A stretch of DNA of 64,000 bases from an uncultured Flavobacteriales bacterium (GTDB lineage: Bacteria > Bacteroidota > Bacteroidia > Flavobacteriales_D > Crocinitomicaceae): NCBI GenBank assembly GCA_964389755.1, contig CAYMEW010000015.1, positions 2,002 to 66,001 on the forward strand, in the 5' to 3' direction. This document shows, in pieces, positions 2,856-53,622 of this stretch (its first letter is position 1; the number at the start of each line of letters is the position of its first letter). The notes under the pieces were generated by a model that had not been told where the DNA came from, made no database searches, and saw only the letters and a list, made by a program, of their open reading frames with translations. The position numbers and the translations under genes were made by a program.

Positions 2856-4091
2856 ATGGAAGAGCAAAAGAAAAGACCGTTCAGTGTGCGGGAGGTACGG
2901 GAAGAATTTCCGGCACTTCGCAGGCTGATCTACGGAAAGAACCTGATTTATTTCGATAACGGGGCAACTTCGCAAAAGCCGCAGGTGGTGCTCGATGCCA
3001 TCAATCATTTTTATGCGAAAGACAATGCCAACATCCATCGGGGAGTGCATTTTATGTCCCAACAGGCCACTTCCGAATACGAAGCTGCGCGTAAAACAAT
3101 TCAAGGTCACCTCAATGCTGAAAAACCCGAAGAAGTGATCTTTACCAAAGGAACCACCGATTCGATCAACCTGGTGGCGTATTCCTTCGGGCACCTGCTC
3201 AGCGAGGGAGATGAGATCATCATCACCGCGATGGAACACCATTCGAACATTGTTCCCTGGCAAATGCTCTGCGAACGCAAGAAATGCGTATTGAAAGTGG
3301 CTCCCATCAATAAAAAAGGAGAACTGATCCTGGAAGAGTACGAAAAACTGCTCAACGAACGCACGAAGCTCGTTTCAGTCGTACACATTTCAAATACGCT
3401 CGGAACGATTAACCCCGTGAAAGAGCTAATTCGAAAAGCACACGAGGTCGGAGCGCGCGTTTTGGTAGACGGTGCCCAGAGCATACAGCATACTCAGATC
3501 GATGTGCGCGATATGGATTGCGACTTCTTTGTATTCTCTGCACATAAAGTTTATGGCCCAACCGGTATCGGGATCCTCTACGGAAAAGAAGAGATCCTCG
3601 AAAAAATGCCGCCGTACCAGGGAGGTGGCGATATGATCGAAAAGGTGACTTTTGAACGAACAACCTACAACGAACTGCCGTTCAAGTTCGAAGCGGGAAC
3701 ACCGCACATTGCCGGGGGGATCTGCCTCGGGAAAGCGCTTGAATACCTCGAGCAGTTCGACATGGAAGCGATCAAAAAGCACGAAACGGAACTGGGTGAA
3801 TACGCCTCGGACCTGCTTTCCACATTCGAGGGAATGCGACTGATCGGAACAGCTAAGAAGAAAACCAGTGTGGTCTCCTTCGTCGTCGAAGGAATCCACC
3901 CTTTTGATATCGGAACGCTCCTGGATAAACAGGGAATTGCCGTGCGTACCGGGCATCACTGCACACAACCCCTGATGGACTTTTACCAGGTTCCCGGAAC
4001 GGTGCGCGCTTCATTTGCGTTCTACAATACCAAAGAAGAGATCGATACCTTTATCACCGCCGTCGAAAAAAGTATCTCGATGCTGAAATAG
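2856..4091 (+). CDS. sufS: Cysteine desulfurase SufS (class V aminotransferase)
   Basis: IYFDNGATSQKP, HHSNIVPWQ, SAHKVYGPTGIG (PLP Lys), RTGHHCTQPL (active-site Cys). Confidence 0.92.
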   Translation: MEEQKKRPFSVREVREEFPALRRLIYGKNLIYFDNGATSQKPQVVLDAINHFYAKDNANIHRGVHFMSQQATSEYEAARKTIQGHLNAEKPEEVIFTKGTTDSINLVAYSFGHLLSEGDEIIITAMEHHSNIVPWQMLCERKKCVLKVAPINKKGELILEEYEKLLNERTKLVSVVHISNTLGTINPVKELIRKAHEVGARVLVDGAQSIQHTQIDVRDMDCDFFVFSAHKVYGPTGIGILYGKEEILEKMPPYQGGGDMIEKVTFERTTYNELPFKFEAGTPHIAGGICLGKALEYLEQFDMEAIKKHETELGEYASDLLSTFEGMRLIGTAKKKTSVVSFVVEGIHPFDIGTLLDKQGIAVRTGHHCTQPLMDFYQVPGTVRASFAFYNTKEEIDTFITAVEKSISMLK

Positions 4092-4114
4092 CGTCGACTA
4101 AAAAAGAAACAGCG

Positions 4115-4531
4115 ATGTCGATAGAAGCAAAACAACAGGAGATCATTGACGAATTTGCCGTCTATGACGACTGGATGGAAAAATACGAATACATCATCGA
4201 ACTTGGAAAAGAACTTCCGCTGATCGATGATTCCAAAAAGACGGACGAACGCCTCATTGAAGGCTGTCAGTCGCGTGTGTGGCTCGATGCCGCCGTCGAA
4301 GGAAATAAAATGCACTTTACCGCGGATTCCGATGCGATCATTACCAAAGGCATTATCGGCTTGCTCATCCGGGTGCTCGACGGGGAAGCTCCGGCAGAGG
4401 TAGCAACAACCGATTTGCATTTTATCAACGACATCGGCCTGGCAGAACACCTTTCACCCACACGGGCAAATGGCCTCGCAAGTATGGTGAAGAAATTGAA
4501 AATGAGTGCGCTGCTTGCACTCCAACCTTGA
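4115..4531 (+). CDS. sufE: SufE-like sulfur acceptor
   Basis: IEGCQSRVWL motif, 138 aa, directly downstream of sufS. Confidence 0.85.
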   Translation: MSIEAKQQEIIDEFAVYDDWMEKYEYIIELGKELPLIDDSKKTDERLIEGCQSRVWLDAAVEGNKMHFTADSDAIITKGIIGLLIRVLDGEAPAEVATTDLHFINDIGLAEHLSPTRANGLASMVKKLKMSALLALQP

Positions 4532-37603: not shown

Positions 37604-37606
37604 TTG

Positions 37607-37679
37607 TCGGGATGACTGGACTCGAACCAGCGACCCCCACGTCCCGAACGTGGTACGCTACCAACTGCGCTACATCCCG
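37607..37679 (-). tRNA. tRNA-Pro (anticodon CGG)
   Basis: Reverse complement CGGGATGTAGCGCAGTTGGTAGCGTACCACGTTCGGGACGTGGGGGTCGCTGGTTCGAGTCCAGTCATCCCGA folds as a cloverleaf. Anticodon loop TTCGGGA. Confidence 0.9.
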
Positions 37680-37685
37680 TTTTTG

Positions 37686-37758
37686 TCGGGGTGACTGGAT
37701 TCGAACCAGCGACCCCTAGCACCCCATGCTAGTACGCTACCAACTGCGCCACACCCCG
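37686..37758 (-). tRNA. tRNA-Pro (anticodon GGG)
   Basis: Reverse complement CGGGGTGTGGCGCAGTTGGTAGCGTACTAGCATGGGGTGCTAGGGGTCGCTGGTTCGAATCCAGTCACCCCGA. Anticodon loop ATGGGGT. Confidence 0.9.
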
Positions 37759-46417: not shown

Positions 46418-47035
46418 ATGTCACGCGCACTTAAAAAACTCGACGAACGCCTCGAAGGCACGCTATCTGAACTGCAACTGGCTCCGCTCCGGGAAGAAGA
46501 AACGGTGTTGCTATCCAAAAGCAAACAGGGCGGCGATCTCTTGCTGTGCTCACGCGAAAACCTGCTAAATGGCATCGTACTGACTGCTATCCAGAAAGTA
46601 CCTGAGTCGCTCGAAGGTTCACCACGTGTACTCGTCGTTACGGCCAGGCCGGAAAAAGCGTTTGAAATGTATAAACTGGCGCTCGACTTGCTCAAACGCA
46701 CGGAAGTGGATCCGGAACACGCGCACGACACGGGCAACCAGATCGAGCAGCGCAACGACATTTTCGAAGGTGCGGAAATGATCTTCGGAAACCTGCGCCG
46801 CGTCTACGACCTCTACATCCAGAACGGCATCAACATGAACCTCTTGCAACTCGTAATCCTAGACGACCTCGACGAAATGCTTCGCCATGGAAACGCCGGA
46901 CAGCTCAATCGCCTGCTCGAAAGTTTCCCCAAATGCCAGCGCATGGCCATCACCACACAACTTACTCCTAAAGTAGAAAGCATTTTACCCGATTTTCTGG
47001 TGAACCCGGAGGAAAGGGATTTTTTAAATCGTTAA
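46418..47035 (+). CDS. Degenerate DEAD-box helicase domain-1-only protein
   Basis: 205 aa. Shows RVLVVTARPEKA, a LVILDDLDEML (DEAD-like) block and MAITTQLTP (SAT-like), but no intact Walker A GKT. Confidence 0.5.
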   Translation: MSRALKKLDERLEGTLSELQLAPLREEETVLLSKSKQGGDLLLCSRENLLNGIVLTAIQKVPESLEGSPRVLVVTARPEKAFEMYKLALDLLKRTEVDPEHAHDTGNQIEQRNDIFEGAEMIFGNLRRVYDLYIQNGINMNLLQLVILDDLDEMLRHGNAGQLNRLLESFPKCQRMAITTQLTPKVESILPDFLVNPEERDFLNR

Positions 47036-47373
47036 GCTAGCGTCAAACAAGCAGGTTTTTCTGGCAATGACTCTTCAATGAAATCACGTATAAGTTCGAA
47101 TCGCTTGATGAATAGCTGCGCAATTTCGTCTGTCCGTAAATTTCCGGTGCGTAACCAAATGATTTTAGGAGGGTGGCCGTTTAATTGGATGAGGTCATAA
47201 AAATCGGTATCAAAACTAACAATGGTATAGTGATGATCTCTGGCAAACCTCCATATTTCAATGTCAGTTGCATCTTCAAGTCCTACTTCCCGGACCTGCT
47301 TCGCATCCGGAAAAACCGTTCTGATTTTGTGTATCACATGAAATGAAATATTTTGATCGAAAAGTAACGTCAT
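47032..47373 (-). CDS. DUF5615 PIN-like (Mut7-C-type) putative toxin
   Basis: LLFDQNISFHV...TIVSFDTDFYDL pattern. Start overlaps the stop of the DUF433 gene by 1 nt. Confidence 0.75.
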   Translation of the reverse strand: MTLLFDQNISFHVIHKIRTVFPDAKQVREVGLEDATDIEIWRFARDHHYTIVSFDTDFYDLIQLNGHPPKIIWLRTGNLRTDEIAQLFIKRFELIRDFIEESLPEKPACLTLA

Positions 47374-47594
47374 TAGGCAACCCTAAATCGTTGTTCACGA
47401 TCCGCTGCATAAGCCAAACAGGCACGTATTTGATCCTCTGTTAATTCCGGGAAATCGGAAATAATTTCCTGAACGGACATACCGGATGCGAGCCAGTTTA
47501 AAACATCAAATACCGTTATGCGGGTACCGTTGATACACGGTTTCCCAAAACGAATTTCCGCATGGATGGAAATGTATTTTTTATAATCGATCAT
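47373..47594 (-). CDS. DUF433 putative antitoxin
   Basis: RFGKPCINGTRITVFDVLNWLASGMSVQEIISDFPELTEDQIRACLAY, a textbook DUF433 pattern. Confidence 0.8.
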   Translation of the reverse strand: MIDYKKYISIHAEIRFGKPCINGTRITVFDVLNWLASGMSVQEIISDFPELTEDQIRACLAYAADREQRFRVA

Positions 47595-48382: not shown

Positions 48383-49606
48383 ATGCAGTTCACACAGAAC
48401 GTTCTCTACTGGTTACGGCACCGCTACCGGAAAATACTTAACAGCATCGCCTTTTACCCGGCCCTGATCGGATTTTGCTTCCTGCTGCTTTCCATCGGCG
48501 TATTATACCTGGATTATTCAGGGTTCGGGGAAAAACTCACTTCCGGAATTGACTGGCTTACGCTCAAGGATTCGTCCACGGCGCGGAGCATCGTCGCTGC
48601 GATTGTAACGGGAATCATTTCACTTACCGTGTTCAGTTTTTCGATGGTGATGATCGTCCTCAACCAGGCGGCGTCGAATATGTCGAACCGTGTGCTGGAC
48701 AAACTCATCGGGAACCGTTTCCAACAGGTTGTGCTTGGCATTTACATCGGCACGATCGTTTATGCGCTCTTCCTGCTTTCCAATATCCGCGACATAGACT
48801 CCGGCCTGCAAGTGCCCGTCATCGGCATCTACCTGCTTATTTGCATCACGATCTTCGACATCTTCCTGTTTATCTATTTTCTGCATTACATCACGCAGTC
48901 CGTAAAATACGAGGTGATCACTCAGCGCTTATACGAAAGTACCCGCGAGGCCATGCGCGTGCAATGCGATATCTATGAACTGGAACCGGACATCGACGCG
49001 CCGGAACTGACGCAACGTGTTTGCTTCCCGCTTTCCGGTATTTACTGCGGGTTCGGGGAAGAACAGCTTGTGACGTTCTGCGAAAAGCACGACCTGGTGC
49101 TCCGATTTATGCATCCTCCGGGAACGTTCGTGCTGAGTGGATCAGATTTGCTTGTCTGCAATAAACCGATTTCCGCTGACATACTTCGCGACCTGATGAA
49201 ATGCGTATTGATCCAGGAAAAAGAATCGATTGAAGACGATTACGTATACGGATTGCAACAACTGAAAGAAATAGCCAACCGCGCGCTGAGTCCGGGTATT
49301 AACGACCAGGGAACGGCTATCGTCGCGCTGCGGTCGCTGTTCACACTCCTTGCAAAGCGCCTGCGCAGTTTCCCGAAAAAGACCATCTACGATTCGCAAA
49401 TGAAGCTGCGCATCCTCCCAAATACGCACGACTTCGAATCGCTCGTGCGCCTGTGCGTATTCCCGGTCTGGCACTATGGGAAAGACGATCCGTGCATTCA
49501 ACGCGAAATGCGCCTGCTCATCACGCAGTTGAACACCATTCAGTCCACTGCTGTTATGAACGAGTTGCTCGGAGAAGTGGAGGCTGCTGGTGAAATTGAT
49601 AATTAG
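48383..49606 (+). CDS. DUF2254-family membrane protein
   Basis: Four N-terminal TM helices plus a soluble C-domain with the GINDQGTAI-type motif. Confidence 0.65.
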   Translation: MQFTQNVLYWLRHRYRKILNSIAFYPALIGFCFLLLSIGVLYLDYSGFGEKLTSGIDWLTLKDSSTARSIVAAIVTGIISLTVFSFSMVMIVLNQAASNMSNRVLDKLIGNRFQQVVLGIYIGTIVYALFLLSNIRDIDSGLQVPVIGIYLLICITIFDIFLFIYFLHYITQSVKYEVITQRLYESTREAMRVQCDIYELEPDIDAPELTQRVCFPLSGIYCGFGEEQLVTFCEKHDLVLRFMHPPGTFVLSGSDLLVCNKPISADILRDLMKCVLIQEKESIEDDYVYGLQQLKEIANRALSPGINDQGTAIVALRSLFTLLAKRLRSFPKKTIYDSQMKLRILPNTHDFESLVRLCVFPVWHYGKDDPCIQREMRLLITQLNTIQSTAVMNELLGEVEAAGEIDN

Positions 49607-50037
49607 TTATTTCCGGATGTAAAATACTTTGGATCCACAATGGGAAGAATTGCGTTATGAAGAAAGGTGCCTCGATAAAAAGAGAACATCATACCCCGGG
49701 TAGTTGAAATAGCGATGGAGTTAAGAGAGAAAATAAGTTGATCGGGAAGTGTAAAACGATTATCTTCTTTAAAGTAATATTCCGAAAGATTAGGGATTTC
49801 GTAAACACAACTCGTACGGATTTTACCGTATAACTCTGATTCAGTTTCTCCCATAATGCGAACATTGCAGATTACAATAAATGAAGTGTCTTCCGGGTTT
49901 GTAATGTGATGTTCCAGATTAATATCAAACTCGAATACGGAACTTTCGGACAAAGGTTTACCGGGCAAAATAAGTGACGACTCAAGTAACTCGATAGACC
50001 TGATCTGAAATTGTATTGGATCTTTTTTTTTACTCAT
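49603..50037 (-). CDS. SecB-like chaperone
   Basis: 144 aa. By-eye register with E. coli SecB: FQIRSIELLESSLILP / FQIQRIYTKDISFEAP, VICNVRIMGE... / VVLRVTVTAS..., and TTRGMMFSFYRGTFLHNAILPIVDPKYF / [26 protein letters not shown]. Confidence 0.6.
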   Translation of the reverse strand: MSKKKDPIQFQIRSIELLESSLILPGKPLSESSVFEFDINLEHHITNPEDTSFIVICNVRIMGETESELYGKIRTSCVYEIPNLSEYYFKEDNRFTLPDQLIFSLNSIAISTTRGMMFSFYRGTFLHNAILPIVDPKYFTSGNN

Positions 50038-50050
50038 CTTGCTTTGTGCT

Positions 50051-50488
50051 TTATGCTGACTCGCGAATGTGTGTTATTATTGATCGGGCAGAGTATTGTT
50101 TATTCATAATTGGTTGACCAAAGATCATTTCGTTTAAACAGGCTGTTTCGGTAATTTGAACTTGTCGGCTTACTAGGGCGCGATAGATTACGACCGGTTT
50201 TATTTGTTTGGGTTCCTCCGGGTTCAATAGCGAAACACCGAGGGCATTTTCCAGTTCTATCAGCGTGTCTACTGTAAAGTTGTGCGTTCCGGACAGCCAC
50301 TTCGAAATTATGGAAGGGTTTTCTTTGCCTACTGCGGCCAAAAGATCTTTCTTTTTCCAGTTTTTCGCTTGCATGGCTTTTTCAATACGAACCGCCAACA
50401 TCATTTTTGCGTCTGTTTTAGCTTGTTCTAACGGCGTAATTTCCGCAAGTAACTGGTCCAAAGTACTGGTGGGATTATTCTTTTTCAT
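50051..50488 (-). CDS. XRE-family HTH antitoxin with a ~55-aa C-terminal extension
   Basis: Start taken at MKKNNPTS. HTH KNWKKKDLLAAVGKENPSIISKWLSGTHNFTVDTLIELENALG, then an extra tail NPEEPKQIKPVVIYRALVSRQVQI... Confidence 0.7.
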   Translation of the reverse strand: MKKNNPTSTLDQLLAEITPLEQAKTDAKMMLAVRIEKAMQAKNWKKKDLLAAVGKENPSIISKWLSGTHNFTVDTLIELENALGVSLLNPEEPKQIKPVVIYRALVSRQVQITETACLNEMIFGQPIMNKQYSARSIITHIRESA

Positions 50489-50979
50489 TGTTCTCTGTAA
50501 TGTCAAATTCAAGGTTTCCTTCAAAATCAAGGTAGTCATTCATATAATAAATGTCTTTTTCCCTGATTCTTTGCGTAATAATCGCCGATAATTTACGCAG
50601 GAAATAATTTTCGCTCTTAAGTTTTTCGTCTTCCTGTAATGCGCTTATCGATTTGGGCTTGTATCCGCCGCTTCCTAAAACGATTAATTGAGATCCGTAT
50701 ACAATATAACCTCAAATTGCTGTTTGGGATATCGTAAAGCGCACAAACACCATCCCCGGGAGCGCCTTCCCATTCTTTGAAAAATTGCACACGGGCACCG
50801 GTCTTTGTCCCTATAGTTCTTAAACGTTGAATGATATCTTTTGTTTCACTTTTAAATGAAATTGAATATTCGTTAACAAATTTTTCAAACAGTGTGGTAC
50901 TTTCATCTTCAAGATACACCGAGTAAATTGAAGCCTCCTTGCCACTCAAGCTATCTATTTTTACTAATTTGCATTTCAT
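50475..50979 (-). pseudogene. Gp49/HigB-like (RelE superfamily) toxin gene interrupted by a 1-nt frameshift
   Basis: Frame A (50979-50617) ends ...NSNLRLYCIRISINRF... The other frame is open from 50711 and reads YGSQLIVLGSGGYKPKSISALQEDEKLKSENYFLRKLSAIITQRIREKD... to a TAA at 50475-50477 that overlaps the antitoxin ATG. Total length is 505 nt (3n+1). Confidence 0.6.
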
Positions 50980-50992
50980 TCAGGCGAGCGTT

Positions 50993-51000
50993 CAAAGGTA
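50993..51000 (-). promoter_or_regulatory. -7 box (TACCTTTG) upstream of the toxin gene
   Basis: The minus strand reads TACCTTTG 13 nt before the ATG at 50979. Confidence 0.5.
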
Positions 51001-51462
51001 TAGTTTATTTTATATAACACAAATAAATTTTACTTAAAAGTGAATTTTATTCATTTTTTATTATTTGTTACGGATTAGGCAAGTTAGTGAAATTTATTTA
51101 TAGTTGAACTATGTCTTAGTAATAAAACTTCCTCTGGCAAATGATTCAATTTCATCAATTCAAAGATCGAATTGAAAATACCGGTATGAAATCCCGAAGC
51201 GAAACCGTGTACCCGGCAAAACCTCTTCCAGCCTTGGAGAACCCGGTTTTTAAGACGCCAAAAATTTGGATAACAAGTGAGGAGAACAAGCGCAGCTTGT
51301 GAAGACCAAGTGGTAGCGCAGGGAACTCCAAAGGAGATCACCGATCCTGTCCAAATTTTCAAGGCTGAAAAATCAACGCAACGGTAGTGGAGTTGAAGGG
51401 TTCTCCACAGCCCTTGATTTTTTGTTTCTTTTGCATCAAGGCAAAAGAAAGGAGAAAGAAAA

Positions 51463-51771
51463 CTAAACTTTTGAAATGCACTTGGCTTCCGAAGCAACGG
51501 TCGTTCCCTGCAATCCCCTCAAAAAACCATACACCTGCCGCGCCAGCATCTCCACTTTCCCTGAATCCTTCACATCCCCGACCGAGCCGATCAACGCCAG
51601 ATACACCTCAAACACACCATTCGGCTGCGCTTCCAGCCGCATTAGTTCGAAAATACGGTCCGCGAGGTTGAGGTGGTAGTGCTCCGCCGAAATTCCCAGC
51701 CGCAGCAGCGAGCTGCTCAGGTGTTCATAACGGATGTTGTCTTCGATCAGACCGATGAGGATTTTTTCCAT
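51463..51771 (-). CDS. Hypothetical protein (~102 aa)
   Basis: Start taken at MEKILIGLIEDN. No recognisable domain. Preceded by the palindrome CCTTTGCA-N12-TGCAAAGG (51774-51801). Confidence 0.5.
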   Translation of the reverse strand: MEKILIGLIEDNIRYEHLSSSLLRLGISAEHYHLNLADRIFELMRLEAQPNGVFEVYLALIGSVGDVKDSGKVEMLARQVYGFLRGLQGTTVASEAKCISKV

Positions 51772-51823
51772 GACCTTTGCATTTTTTGTTCCTTGCAAAG
51801 GTGAGGTGTTCAACTAAGAAATC

Positions 51824-51843
51824 TGTCATAATCTATTATGACA
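51824..51843 (-). terminator. Perfect 9-bp hairpin downstream of the AIPR gene
   Basis: tgtcataat-ct-attatgaca, 22 nt past the AIPR stop. There is no clear T-tract, so it could instead be an operator. Confidence 0.35.
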
Positions 51844-51864
51844 CAGGGAGTTTTTATTAACAAT

Positions 51865-53622
51865 TTATCCTTTTGGGTCGATTAGGGCAGCAAAATTTGT
51901 AAATGGATTATTTGTGTCAGTCATTTTACCGATCTCGATAGTACTCCTTACTGTAGAAACTATCTGACGATAACTTTCCTTATCATTTATAATTTGAGCA
52001 AATTCGCTATCTATAACTCGCGCAACAATTGAAAGTGTAATGACTATTAATGGTTTACATCTATCAATTAATTCCTGAATACTATTGCTACTTGCTGATG
52101 CAATACCATTTGCGAACGCGACATTATGTTTGTCAACACTTTCACCAATAATGCTTTCAAGACTGTCTCCAATTATAGATAAGAGAAAATATTTAAATCT
52201 CAAATGTCTAAGTAATGACAATTGTTTAATTTCATCAGTAGTGCATCTTGTATCGTTGTTTTTGACTTTTAATTCATAACACCTTGCATCAATAGCTTTA
52301 ACAAAGCAATATGCCAATAATAAATGCTTAGATTTCGTATTATGAAAAGCATCGTTGTAGAGACTAGTACTTTCAAAAATATTGTTTTTCCCACTTCCTG
52401 CTTCGACGTAATTGCCGTGCAAAGCAGACGTTGGCTGTGCAACTAGTTCAATACTTAATTCGGAGTGGTTTTCAAATCCTCTTTTGAAGGAATAAGTGTA
52501 ACCTAATTTATCAAATTCGGTAGCAATTCTAACCTGCTCGGGGTTTCCACTATATTTATCCCATGTCGTGATTTCATTCTGAGTATTATTATATTTTACT
52601 ATAGAATTTATCGTATTTTCATCGGTGGATTCAATGATTCGACATAAAACTTTAACAGCTTCTAAGTTTTCAGGATTTGAATGCGAAATGGAACCTGTTG
52701 TTTGTGCACCGTTTATAATTGAAATCCCCTCCAGCAAAGTTTCATTATTATTGCCTGGATTTGCATAGAATTTAGTGGTTAAGATCGTTATTCCATTGTT
52801 AAAAGCCCAAAAATTTTCTGCCTCATTTTCGACTGTAGTTTTAATACCATTGTTAATTTTTTTTCGTCCTCGTCGACTGATACCTAAGAAATTTCTGTAA
52901 TTAGCTGAAAATAGGTTATCACCATATTCAGTATAAAGAGTTTTCAGCCATTGACCATTCACAGTAAATATTGAAGCCTTCCATTTTTCGTTCGATTCTT
53001 CAAATTTTATTTTTTCTGGTAACTTTATTGTATCTTTTACAGCTATTGCGGTTTCTCTTAGCCTATAGATTCGCTCGGTATATTGTAGACCTACCTCCTC
53101 TGCGTTTATAATTATATCGGAATCATTTATTAACTTGATTAAGTTAGCTTTAACAGTGTCAAGTTCGTCACGAACATTTTTTGATTCGGCTAAATTATGC
53201 ACGTAGAGTATCTCAATATCCTCAATTTCCTTATTTCCCAGAGCTTCTCTAATATCTTGTGCTATTTCTCTAAGAGAATTTTTAAATTTTCCATTTTCAT
53301 CAGTTCTGAGGTCATCTAAATTACCAGATAAAATCCAAGCAAACGCAGTATTTAAATCTGATGCCTTGTTTGACTTTGCTTTATAAACTGCACCATTCGA
53401 AGAATAAGTACCTTGAGCCACAATTAATCTTTTACTATCTAAATCAAGCCTAACAAAGTCTATTTTCTTATCACCATGACCGTCGGTTAAGCTTTCAGAA
53501 GCTAACTGATCTATATCTGGAAAGTCAAGATACATTCCCATGACCCATAATAAATAAGCCTTTTCTTCACCATATTTTTCAATTAGTAAAGTTTGATCCT
53601 TAAAATTTTTCAAATAGTCCAT
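51865..53622 (-). CDS. AIPR-family abortive-infection phage-resistance protein
   Basis: 585 aa. N-terminus ESLTDGHGDKKIDFVRLD...IVAQGTY, central FWAFNNGITILT...INGAQTTGSI, the typical AIPR pattern. Strongly AT-rich. Confidence 0.75.
   Translation of the reverse strand: MDYLKNFKDQTLLIEKYGEEKAYLLWVMGMYLDFPDIDQLASESLTDGHGDKKIDFVRLDLDSKRLIVAQGTYSSNGAVYKAKSNKASDLNTAFAWILSGNLDDLRTDENGKFKNSLREIAQDIREALGNKEIEDIEILYVHNLAESKNVRDELDTVKANLIKLINDSDIIINAEEVGLQYTERIYRLRETAIAVKDTIKLPEKIKFEESNEKWKASIFTVNGQWLKTLYTEYGDNLFSANYRNFLGISRRGRKKINNGIKTTVENEAENFWAFNNGITILTTKFYANPGNNNETLLEGISIINGAQTTGSISHSNPENLEAVKVLCRIIESTDENTINSIVKYNNTQNEITTWDKYSGNPEQVRIATEFDKLGYTYSFKRGFENHSELSIELVAQPTSALHGNYVEAGSGKNNIFESTSLYNDAFHNTKSKHLLLAYCFVKAIDARCYELKVKNNDTRCTTDEIKQLSLLRHLRFKYFLLSIIGDSLESIIGESVDKHNVAFANGIASASSNSIQELIDRCKPLIVITLSIVARVIDSEFAQIINDKESYRQIVSTVRSTIEIGKMTDTNNPFTNFAALIDPKG

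Follow-up and report, generated by a model that had tools for sequence, protein, structure and literature searches.

The results revealed that the locus at 49603-50979 of the window (the whole 64-kb stretch of DNA that was analyzed) is probably a HigBAC-type toxin-antitoxin-chaperone (TAC) operon of the mostly tripartite PDC-M64 family of Bacteroidota, present here as a copy with a dead toxin. The interval comprises three closely packed, co-oriented minus-strand genes, namely a broken toxin gene, an XRE-family helix-turn-helix (HTH) gene, and a gene encoding a 144-aa protein, and all elements of the tightly packed three-gene arrangement described in the initial annotation were located. The trio is of the TAC kind known from other bacteria and belongs to a large unnamed family in Bacteroidota. 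The gene anatomy, the deletion in the toxin gene, the folds, the synteny, the conservation pattern of the antitoxin tail, the operator motif, and the genomic context were established directly. The features are as follows:

50475..50979, minus strand: toxin pseudogene with a RelE/HigB-fold core and a C-terminal extension (from ORFs, homologue alignment, and a homologue model)
between 50695 and 50694, minus strand: site of the 5-nt deletion, where TATGG is expected (from DNA comparison with L083 and others, and secondary structure)
50051..50488, minus strand: XRE-family HTH antitoxin, 145 aa, apparently intact (from Pfam HTH_3, PADLOC, and conserved residues)
50054..50224, minus strand: C-terminal tail of the antitoxin, residues 89-145, candidate chaperone-addiction (ChAD) region (from the family alignment)
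49603..50037, minus strand: SecB-fold chaperone-like protein, 144 aa, intact (from the AF2 model, Foldseek, and PADLOC)
51032..51041, minus strand: palindromic operator core ACTTTTAAGT (in TTCACTTTTAAGTAAAA), 52 nt upstream of the toxin ATG (from motif conservation)
50993..51000, minus strand: putative Bacteroidota-type -7 box TACCTTTG (TAnnTTTG) (from its spacing to the palindrome in homologous loci)

The ATG of the HTH gene overlaps the stop of the second toxin frame, as had been claimed; the overlap measures 14 nt (ATGAAAAAGAATAA), and the 144-aa gene starts 13 nt past the HTH stop. A TAC is recognized by a toxin gene that is followed, on one strand and at close spacing, by the antitoxin and chaperone genes, and this arrangement was found both in the window and in related loci. 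The TAC-like architecture proposed earlier is supported by this synteny, by the SecB fold of the third protein, by the universal antitoxin tail, and by the RelE/HigB-type core of the toxin.

The third gene is predicted to encode a SecB-like chaperone, at the level of the fold. The AlphaFold (AF2) model of the 144-aa monomer (pLDDT 88, pTM 0.82) comprised strands at residues 11-22, 36-44, 52-62, and 69-80 and a helix at 99-120, which is the SecB fold of a four-stranded antiparallel sheet with a long helix. When this model was compared with the PDB by using Foldseek, the top 19 matches were all SecB or Mycobacterium tuberculosis (Mtb) Rv1957 (E = 8.5e-6 to 3.5e-4, probability 1.0), and the TM scores against 1qyn, 1fx3, 1ozb, and 5mtw were 0.51-0.67; the likeness to SecB first noticed by eye is thus borne out by structure prediction. 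The Pfam SecB profile PF02556 gave the opposite outcome, with no match at E ≤ 1 for the window protein and none for the 58 family members (0/58). A PDB sequence search with the 144-aa protein alone found nothing, and hhalign of the family profile against a single PF02556 neighbor revealed no similarity (probability 0.45%). The family profile aligned in register with residues 1-90 of Escherichia coli SecB at a non-significant E value of 0.63. Because Pfam matched none of the 58 members and hhalign revealed no similarity, the homology of this family to SecB rests on structure prediction. The invariant residues of the family, which comprises approximately 3,000 clusters at 50% identity, are all present in the window protein. 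SecB is rare in Bacteroidetes, which contributed 9 of 3813 SecBs in one survey (PMC4361572), in agreement with the scarcity asserted in the initial annotation.

For the second gene, Pfam HTH_3 (PF01381) was detected at residues 35-87 of 145 (approximately 50228-50386) with an E value of 2.6e-8 and 34.2 bits against a cut-off of 23, and the residues conserved in at least 99% of the antitoxin family (S59, W64, S66, G67, T68, and N70) are all retained, in line with the earlier assignment as an XRE-HTH antitoxin. Because HTH_3 spans just residues 35-87, a tail of approximately 57 residues remains, close to the 55 estimated previously. Such a tail was present in all 130 family antitoxins (median length 57 aa) and contains a conserved strand-like motif, PVVIYRALVSRQV. 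Across the family, aromatic residues account for 10.3% of the tail versus 5.3% of the HTH domain, and Tyr for 5.2% versus 0.3%; the window tail has three aromatic residues versus a family median of six. Published ChAD regions are variable in sequence and rely on aromatic residues (PMC5105189, PMC6377645, bioRxiv 10.1101/2024.02.24.581848), and the variable, aromatic-rich tail of this family agrees with these traits. We infer that the tail is a candidate ChAD region that would bind the chaperone. A search through short HTH homologues revealed that two-gene relatives with a tail-less antitoxin, against which a ChAD is classically assessed, are almost absent. The sole fit was L170, a 1.5-kb contig encoding a 97-aa tail-less HTH with no SecB-like gene. 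Most candidates were discarded: L168 and L169 were frameshifted or deleted trios, L162 was a solitary HTH, and L163 was a trio with a shorter tail.

Upstream of the toxin gene, the palindrome ACTTnnAAGT at 51032..51041 is the sole match to this motif within the 64-kb window. The motif was found in 79 of 130 unique regions upstream of homologous toxins, at 31-36 nt (60 cases) or approximately 50 nt (13 cases) from the toxin ATG, and is presumed to be the binding site of the HTH antitoxin. In most homologous loci, TAnnTTTG, the -7 consensus of Bacteroidota, follows the palindrome within 8-12 nt. The promoter was called from this element and from the operator analysis, a sigma-70 scan not being meaningful for Bacteroidota. 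An Rfam scan of 46-55 kb yielded no match.

To characterize the fold of the toxin, an intact homologue (P0061) was modeled with a pLDDT of 92. The model displayed a RelE/HigB/ParE-like core followed by a C-terminal extension, with its elements in the order that defines the RelE/ParE superfamily. Its informative PDB matches were all RelE, ParE, or HigB toxins, including Streptococcus pneumoniae HigB (probability 0.99) and Mtb HigB1 (0.96), with marginal E values of 1e-2 to 1e-1 (best 9.6e-3, none ≤ 1e-3). A Foldseek comparison with viral models in BFVD returned one unnamed, uninformative match at 9e-4. At the sequence level, Pfam, with toxin profiles such as PF05973 Gp49, PF05015 HigB, and PF05016 ParE, yielded no family at E ≤ 1, NCBIfam yielded noise alone, and the family profile produced noise and no toxin match against PDB sequences. 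Of the earlier description as a Gp49/HigB-like RelE toxin, the RelE/HigB-type core stands by fold, whereas the term "Gp49/HigB-like" has no Pfam or NCBIfam match behind it. The family protein is also not a classical HigB of approximately 100 aa, being approximately 165 aa long with its C-terminal extension. Residues R90, Y92, K109, Q117, and R139 are invariant in the family.

We then compared the broken gene with more than 900 intact homologues of approximately 165 aa, all encoded in one frame. In the window, the first frame opens at 50979, encodes 120 aa, and terminates at 50617-50619; it departs from the family frame after residue 94/95. A second frame resumes the family frame at approximately 50694, as YGSQLIVLGSGGYKPK..., and has its stop codon at 50475-50477. 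From 50475 to 50979 the gene measures 505 nt, and 505 + 5 = 510 nt equals 170 codons, corresponding to a gene of approximately 169 codons. DNA alignment with L083 and other intact homologues revealed that ATACGG and ATCTCAA are directly joined in the window, whereas L083 reads ATACGGTATGGAACTCAA, so that TATGG is missing. The deletion takes out Tyr-Gly codons and shifts the frame within the core beta-strand at residues 89-96. The previously reported break of the 505-nt gene is therefore real in the sequence, but the lesion is a 5-nt deletion and not a single-base shift. The repaired toxin aligns end to end with the family at 61-70% identity in the A2 alignment (best BLASTP identity 71%), and no second lesion was found across the full-length family alignment. 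As it reads, the broken gene can only give a 120-aa product that would lack the conserved GGGG-K-P-K strand and everything beyond it. Because the toxin gene has lost 5 nt while no damage is apparent in the promoter, operator, antitoxin, or chaperone, the window copy appears to be a recently toxin-inactivated "AC" remnant.

An alternative reading is that the operon is an intact, functional TAC. On this view, the missing 5 nt would reflect either an assembly or sequencing error or a minority variant, the contig being of metagenomic origin. The window does derive from a metagenome assembly, the gap is the single lesion in an otherwise undamaged toxin gene, and an independent ENA contig (L161) that is 100% identical over window positions 59622-51022 breaks off at 51022, a short way upstream of the toxin, an end point consistent with strain heterogeneity at this locus. 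In a nanopore MAG (L069), moreover, a +1-nt indel that is probably an error lies two codons from the break site. However, a 5-nt deletion outside a homopolymer is atypical of read or polishing errors, and the family shows frequent toxin disruptions of independent origin. The same 120-aa truncated product is on record under NCBI, ENA, and Logan sources, although these records possibly share the same reads. On balance, we consider an artefact or variant unlikely.

The synteny of the trio was examined in related genomes and metagenomes. The results revealed the full trio in 58 of 73 assessable chaperone-seeded genome loci and in 61 of 62 assessable toxin-seeded metagenome loci, with the genes on one strand and abutting or overlapping; the synteny expected from the initial annotation was thereby confirmed. 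The recurrence of this three-gene order in approximately 120 independent loci is far beyond chance. Among the 73 genome loci, 12 had lost the toxin and kept the antitoxin and chaperone, and three (L011, L018, and L027) had the SecB-like gene alone. Four divergent cluster representatives are fusions of HTH, tail, and SecB-like protein (277-301 aa), which lend indirect support to the putative binding of the tail by the chaperone. A sister system was found in L166 and L167, which encode a homologous toxin-HTH pair, with an hhalign probability of 100 and 46% identity for the toxin and 53% identity for the HTH. The 144-aa product of the next gene passes the Pfam SecB threshold (36.4 bits vs. a cut-off of 26); a canonical SecB therefore fills the third position in this system.

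The cassette lies in a defense and mobile-element context. It is AT-rich (GC 0.34-0.39 vs. approximately 0.5) and adjoins an equally AT-rich AIPR/AbiU gene, with a DUF433/DUF5615 pair located 2 kb away, and restriction-modification families are the commonest immediate neighbors in related loci. The trio is already catalogued as the PADLOC candidate PDC-M64, whose HMMs matched the toxin (PDLC04756, 3.3e-44), the HTH protein (PDLC04760, 4.9e-20), and the SecB-like protein (PDLC04763, 9.2e-16). The three matching genes are adjacent in the window, the toxin gene being a pseudogene here. PDC-M64 is an uncharacterized candidate that PADLOC lists without a description, and no text mention of it was found in the searchable literature; the TAC reading comes from the present analysis.

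These loci also bear on a second alternative, according to which the cassette is co-regulated but is not a TAC, the SecB-fold protein being a holdase in a general or export role, or a sensor, and the XRE protein a repressor of the first gene, whose product would bind RNA or act in regulation and would not be toxic. This view is consistent with the absence of a sequence-profile link to SecB, HigB, or Gp49, with the putative status of toxicity and binding, and with the three loci in which the SecB-like gene stands alone. Nevertheless, that gene is almost never solitary (3/73), and the toxin-first order, the overlapping genes, and the HTH protein with its operator are canonical features of type II toxin-antitoxin systems. 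The sister system carries a true Pfam SecB in the third slot, and the surroundings are a defense and mobile-element context. Furthermore, the first gene alone decays recurrently while the other two persist, an asymmetry predicted for a toxin-antitoxin pair. A non-TAC cassette is considered unlikely. Finally, programmed ribosomal frameshifting at the break, with low-level synthesis of full-length toxin, was rejected as highly improbable: in L069, too, the frame shifts no more than two codons from the window position, but the protein is encoded in one frame in more than 900 homologues and in the 58 + 61 loci, two conserved codons (Tyr-Gly) are missing altogether from the window, and the lesions differ (-5 nt in the window vs. 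+1 nt in L069) with no common slippery motif.

The favored reading, that of a toxin-dead HigBAC-type operon, was compared with known systems. Mtb Rv1955-Rv1956-Rv1957 (HigB1-HigA1-SecB^TA) and E. coli NT1F31 HigBAC have the same order of toxin, HTH antitoxin, and SecB-fold chaperone in one operon. They share with the window family a RelE/HigB-fold toxin core and an XRE-type HTH antitoxin whose C-terminal extension varies in sequence and contains aromatic residues (PMC5105189, PMC6377645, bioRxiv 10.1101/2024.02.24.581848), and Rv1957 (5mtw) is the top structural match of the window third protein. The family differs from these systems in several respects: its chaperones are unseen by PF02556 (0/58), and the window chaperone appears to stop after RGTF...P.V.P, its model having neither a second helix nor an acidic tail; the RelE core of its toxins (approximately 165 aa), which belong to no Pfam family, is extended by a long helix plus a small C-terminal sheet; among the aromatic residues of its tails, Tyr and Phe prevail over Trp; and its hosts here are Bacteroidota, with the toxin of the present copy dead. 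Toxin-less "AC" derivatives of TAC systems have been described, with toxin loss as one proposed origin (Sala et al. 2013, PMC3581621). The window likewise keeps the antitoxin and SecB-like chaperone without a functional toxin, but its toxin is still recognizable and bears a single 5-nt lesion, which suggests an early stage of decay rather than a clean two-gene AC. In CmdTAC and MqsRAC of E. coli, a SecB-like chaperone guards a ChAD-bearing antitoxin, and defense has been proven (PMC9519451, PMC11618068). The tripartite logic and defense-island context are common to these systems and the window, where a defense role is presumed; their toxins (an ADP-ribosyltransferase and MqsR) and antitoxins are unrelated to those of the window. 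With housekeeping SecB (E. coli and Haemophilus influenzae), the window protein shares the four-stranded sheet and long helix (TM 0.6-0.67), the RGTF...P.V.P motif, and the FQI-type start; however, its gene lies in a toxin-antitoxin cassette, not beside sec or gpsA/grxC, and has no Pfam match.

For the family, we infer that the first gene product is toxic, from its RelE-like fold and the selective decay of its gene, and that it acts as an RNase; binding of the tail by the chaperone, autoregulation, and a role in defense are likewise proposed. In the intact form, a single promoter would drive the three genes, and the palindromic operator would probably be bound by the HTH antitoxin. The toxin of approximately 165 aa, with its RelE/HigB-like core, would presumably act as a ribosome-dependent mRNA endonuclease. 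The tail of approximately 57 residues, aromatic-rich and otherwise variable, would make the antitoxin chaperone-dependent, and the SecB-fold chaperone, presumably a tetramer, would hold this tail and thereby keep the antitoxin stable. If the family behaves like HigBAC and CmdTAC of E. coli, competition of a phage protein for the chaperone would free the toxin and abort the infection. In the window copy, the toxin would be silenced by the 5-nt loss, with the remaining parts seemingly in place. We consider it possible, although doubtful, that the PDC-M64 trio is a functional phage-sensing TAC with a profile-invisible SecB-fold lineage that is interchangeable with canonical SecB, and that toxin-dead copies (approximately 16% of loci) are not mere decay but are maintained by selection, whether as antitoxin-chaperone modules with an anti-addiction or decoy role or as regulators bound to the operator.

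The decaying window copy is of limited interest by itself. TAC systems, however, are an emerging class of antiphage defense that has so far been studied in Mycobacterium and E. coli, and the present locus reveals a large family that is tripartite almost without exception and occurs in Bacteroidota, where SecB is very scarce. Because Pfam covers neither the toxin nor the chaperone, annotation of such loci shows just "hypothetical protein - XRE regulator - hypothetical protein", and the TAC reading gives the anonymous PDC-M64 candidate a testable mechanism. The family and its sister system also constitute a natural chaperone-swap pair, in which a divergent SecB-fold protein and a Pfam SecB serve homologous toxin-antitoxin pairs, and this pair would be useful for studying the specificity of chaperone addiction.

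The minus strand carries three ORFs in head-to-tail arrangement, with a 14-nt overlap between the antitoxin ORF and the original toxin stop and a 13-nt gap between the antitoxin ORF and the 144-aa ORF. This agrees with the three co-oriented, tightly packed genes described in the initial annotation.

50979 (start) to 50617-50619 (stop), minus strand: toxin ORF in frame A, 120 aa, MKCKLVKIDSLSGKE...LRLYCIR, then off the family frame
stop at 50475-50477, minus strand: toxin continuation one base over, YGSQLIVLGSGGYKPKS...NNEKE
ATG at 50488, minus strand: second ORF, HTH antitoxin, 145 aa, Pfam HTH_3 at residues 35-87
50037-49603, minus strand: third ORF, SecB-like, 144 aa

A search with the joined toxin protein identified 925 homologues of 160-170 aa, all of them single ORFs; the top ones showed 61-71% identity with at least 95% of the length covered, and the joined protein matched the family consensus exactly across LRLYCIR-YGSQLIVLG. 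At the DNA level, the window reads ATACGG directly followed by ATCTCAA, compared with ATACGGTATGGAACTCAA in the related locus L083; therefore, five bases (TATGG) are absent between 50695 and 50694. The break in the toxin frame that had been reported thus proved to be a 5-nt deletion, the restoration of which gives 505 + 5 = 510 nt, or 170 codons, and no second lesion was seen in the toxin gene. The deletion lies inside core strand 89-96. The following strand, which bears the invariant G104/G106/G107/K109, is missing from the frame-A product together with all later sequence, and this product is very probably inactive.

An artefact or a polymorphism is an improbable explanation of the 5-nt gap, since the loss lies outside a homopolymer, which is atypical of an error, and the exact 120-aa truncated product is recorded under NCBI, ENA, and Logan sources. 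On its side is an independent ENA metagenome contig (L161; ERZ23499384 scaffold_401), 100% identical to window positions 59622-51022, which ends at 51022, just short of the module, so that no second sequence spans the deletion site. This contig end hints at population heterogeneity at the module; it cuts the promoter between operator and -7 box and may stem from differences among strains at the cassette boundary. In L069, from a nanopore-derived Saprospiraceae MAG, a 1-nt insertion (~3312-3345) breaks the toxin frame two codons from the site of the window's deletion and is probably a coincidental sequencing error.

Among the profile libraries tried, only PADLOC names the toxin; Pfam and NCBIfam do not, and membership in the Pfam HigB, Gp49, or RelE sequence families was rejected by profile tests. 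We modeled an intact homologue (P0061, 71% identical; pLDDT 92), and every informative PDB match was a RelE/ParE/HigB-superfamily toxin: Streptococcus pneumoniae HigB (6af3; E = 9.6e-3, probability 0.99), HP0894, ParE1, PrpT, Thermus thermophilus RelE, Mycobacterium tuberculosis HigB1 on the ribosome (7nbu; probability 0.96), and Vibrio cholerae HigB2. The E-values were marginal, none reaching 1e-3; therefore, of the earlier label "Gp49/HigB-like RelE-superfamily toxin", we accept a predicted RelE/HigB-fold core but not the Gp49/HigB sequence family.

The 144-aa protein had no match in Pfam, NCBIfam, or a direct PDB sequence search. Its SecB resemblance, initially judged by eye, did not hold at the profile level: PF02556 matched neither the window protein nor any of 58 family members, even at E <= 1, and membership in the Pfam SecB sequence family was rejected. 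A profile of the 58 homologues aligned in register with Escherichia coli SecB residues 1-90 at a sub-significant E = 0.63. At the fold level, the resemblance was upheld. The AlphaFold2 model built on the 58-homologue alignment was confident (pLDDT 88, pTM 0.82) and comprised four strands and then a long helix, and the top 19 Foldseek matches in the PDB were all SecB (1qyn, 1fx3, 1ozb, 5jtl) or Rv1957 (5mtw), with E = 8.5e-6 to 3.5e-4, probability 1.0, and TM 0.51-0.67. The first match was Rv1957, the M. tuberculosis toxin-antitoxin-chaperone (TAC) chaperone with a bound chaperone-addiction (ChAD) peptide. The model thus suggests a SecB fold, yet the protein is not a Pfam SecB. The family is large; in a 50%-identity library, 2,960 cluster representatives passed E <= 1e-3. 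Two loci (L018 and L027, both 4001-4453) carry a solitary SecB-like gene beside a DegT-type aminotransferase with no HTH or toxin gene upstream; these copies are remnants, or else the chaperone has been taken up for another role.

The antitoxin extension beyond the HTH domain, also noted initially, was present in all 130 non-redundant family antitoxins (median 57 aa, 5-95% range 47-63 aa). Directly after the HTH comes a strand-like motif of moderate conservation (consensus V-I-R-Y-H-I-V-V-S-Q-K-V; window PVVIYRALVSRQV), and the position of residue 102 in the window's antitoxin is Y or F in most sequences inspected. Beyond this motif the tail varies and has a high content of N, Q, S, T, and P. 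Across the tail, aromatic residues are twice as frequent as in the HTH domain (10.3% vs 5.3%), with Tyr at 5.2% vs 0.3%. Published ChADs vary in length and sequence and are recognised via aromatic residues (PMC5105189, PMC6377645, bioRxiv 10.1101/2024.02.24.581848), and the tail, a candidate ChAD, fits these properties in its composition. HTH-tail-SecB-like fusions of 277-301 aa occur in four divergent clusters (P0319, P0366, P0434, P0435), with the tail kept as a linker. Shorter tail-less HTH/SecB-like fusions with no toxin upstream (P0023; L058, 3770-4399) look like deletion products; the gene upstream of the L058 fusion is mnmE. A search for tail-less two-gene relatives as a ChAD comparison yielded one case, L170.

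To examine synteny, we scanned two locus sets with family HMMs: 80 genome loci collected with the SecB-like protein as seed (73 assessable) and, from an independent search seeded with the toxin, 80 metagenome loci (at least 57% identical; 62 assessable). The SecB-like-seeded loci, nearly all from Bacteroidota MAGs, comprised 58 full trios, 9 loci in which the toxin was fragmentary, 3 limited to the HTH and SecB-like genes, and 3 with the SecB-like gene alone; 61 of the 62 toxin-seeded loci held the full trio, and one had an incomplete set. Three-gene synteny is thus conserved in related genomes, and the toxin family is nearly always tripartite among the close relatives sampled by toxin seeding. 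Complete trios (toxin ~165 aa, HTH ~140-155 aa, SecB-like ~140-150 aa) share one strand, with adjoining or overlapping genes. Decay affected only the toxin, in 12/73 SecB-like-seeded loci, an asymmetry that a toxin-antitoxin relationship would predict and a match to the toxin-less antitoxin-chaperone (AC) systems of Sala et al. (PMC3581621); the window's toxin-broken state is therefore a recurrent outcome.

A Bacteroidales MAG (GCA_040880545.1; L166 2191-3293, L167 241-1505) carries a sister TAC. Its HTH homologue (P0287, 118 aa, 53% identical) is preceded by a 159-aa protein clearly homologous to the toxin (hhalign probability 100, 46% identity) and followed by a 144-aa protein passing Pfam SecB PF02556 (36.4 bits, cut-off 26, E = 5.7e-9). 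Profile-versus-single-sequence comparison detected no similarity between this SecB and the divergent SecB-fold family. One toxin-antitoxin chassis is therefore paired, by lineage, with canonical SecB or a divergent SecB-fold protein. This sister locus provides the strongest comparative argument that the third gene may act as a TAC chaperone. The sister TAC adjoins a type I RM specificity subunit, and its HTH tail is shorter.

A conserved palindrome, typically TTCACTTATAAGTAAAA, lies upstream of the toxin genes and is followed by TAnnTTTG, the Bacteroidota -7 element. Of 130 unique upstream regions, 79 contained the strict core ACTTnnAAGT; its distance from the ATG was 31-36 nt in 60 cases and about 50 nt in 13. 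Both elements are present in the window; therefore, promoter and operator appear intact.

51041-51032, minus strand: palindrome core ACTTTTAAGT, sole occurrence in 64 kb
51000-50993, minus strand: -7 element TACCTTTG (TAnnTTTG)

By analogy with general type II toxin-antitoxin behaviour, the HTH protein would autoregulate the operon. The cassette has a GC content of 0.34-0.39, compared with about 0.5 in the flanks, and the following genes lie nearby.

51865-53622, minus strand: AIPR/AbiU-type abortive-infection gene, next upstream of the module, 585 aa (Pfam AIPR 3e-29, PADLOC AbiU 1e-27)
47373-47594, minus strand: DUF433 protein, 73 aa, E = 8.6e-25, directly upstream of the DUF5615 gene
47032-47373, minus strand: DUF5615 protein, 113 aa, E = 3.3e-33

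The AIPR/AbiU gene is AT-rich like the cassette (GC 0.32-0.35 vs about 0.5 in the flanks), and the two form a small defence islet. The segment between them (51200-51860) has a normal GC of about 0.49, and its 116-aa ORF (51463-51813, minus strand) had no Pfam match. The DUF433/DUF5615 genes are a second toxin-antitoxin-like pair, 2 kb from the TAC module (local GC about 0.41). A 205-aa ORF (46418-47035, plus strand) with only an N-terminal DEAD helicase domain ends at the GC drop where the DUF5615 gene starts, and may be a helicase gene that was cut short when the low-GC segment inserted. Rfam had no match over 46-55 kb; a tandem tRNA-Pro pair (anticodons CGG and GGG, 5 nt apart) lies at 37606-37758 on the minus strand. 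Among the 128 nearest large ORFs beside related loci, the commonest Pfam families were restriction-modification components (N6_Mtase 5, Eco57I 5, HsdR_N 3, Methylase_S 3, ResIII 3, Type ISP 2), with HipA (2) and integrases (2) also present; these raw family counts fit a mobile or defence setting.

All three window proteins matched PDC-M64, an uncharacterised PADLOC candidate system of which we found no mention in the literature. The trio is thus already catalogued as a candidate, and earlier publications cover TAC systems with their modular build and role in defence, as well as AC derivatives that lack the toxin. In silico, the module resembles HigBAC-type TACs in gene order, SecB-fold third gene, C-terminally extended HTH antitoxin, and RelE-fold toxin, and is predicted to work like them. 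The copy in the window is a remnant whose toxin is dead. The interest is moderate and lies at the family level, in the Bacteroidota-wide spread, the near-universal trio among sampled relatives, the conserved operator, and a divergent candidate chaperone that seems to be interchangeable with a Pfam SecB.
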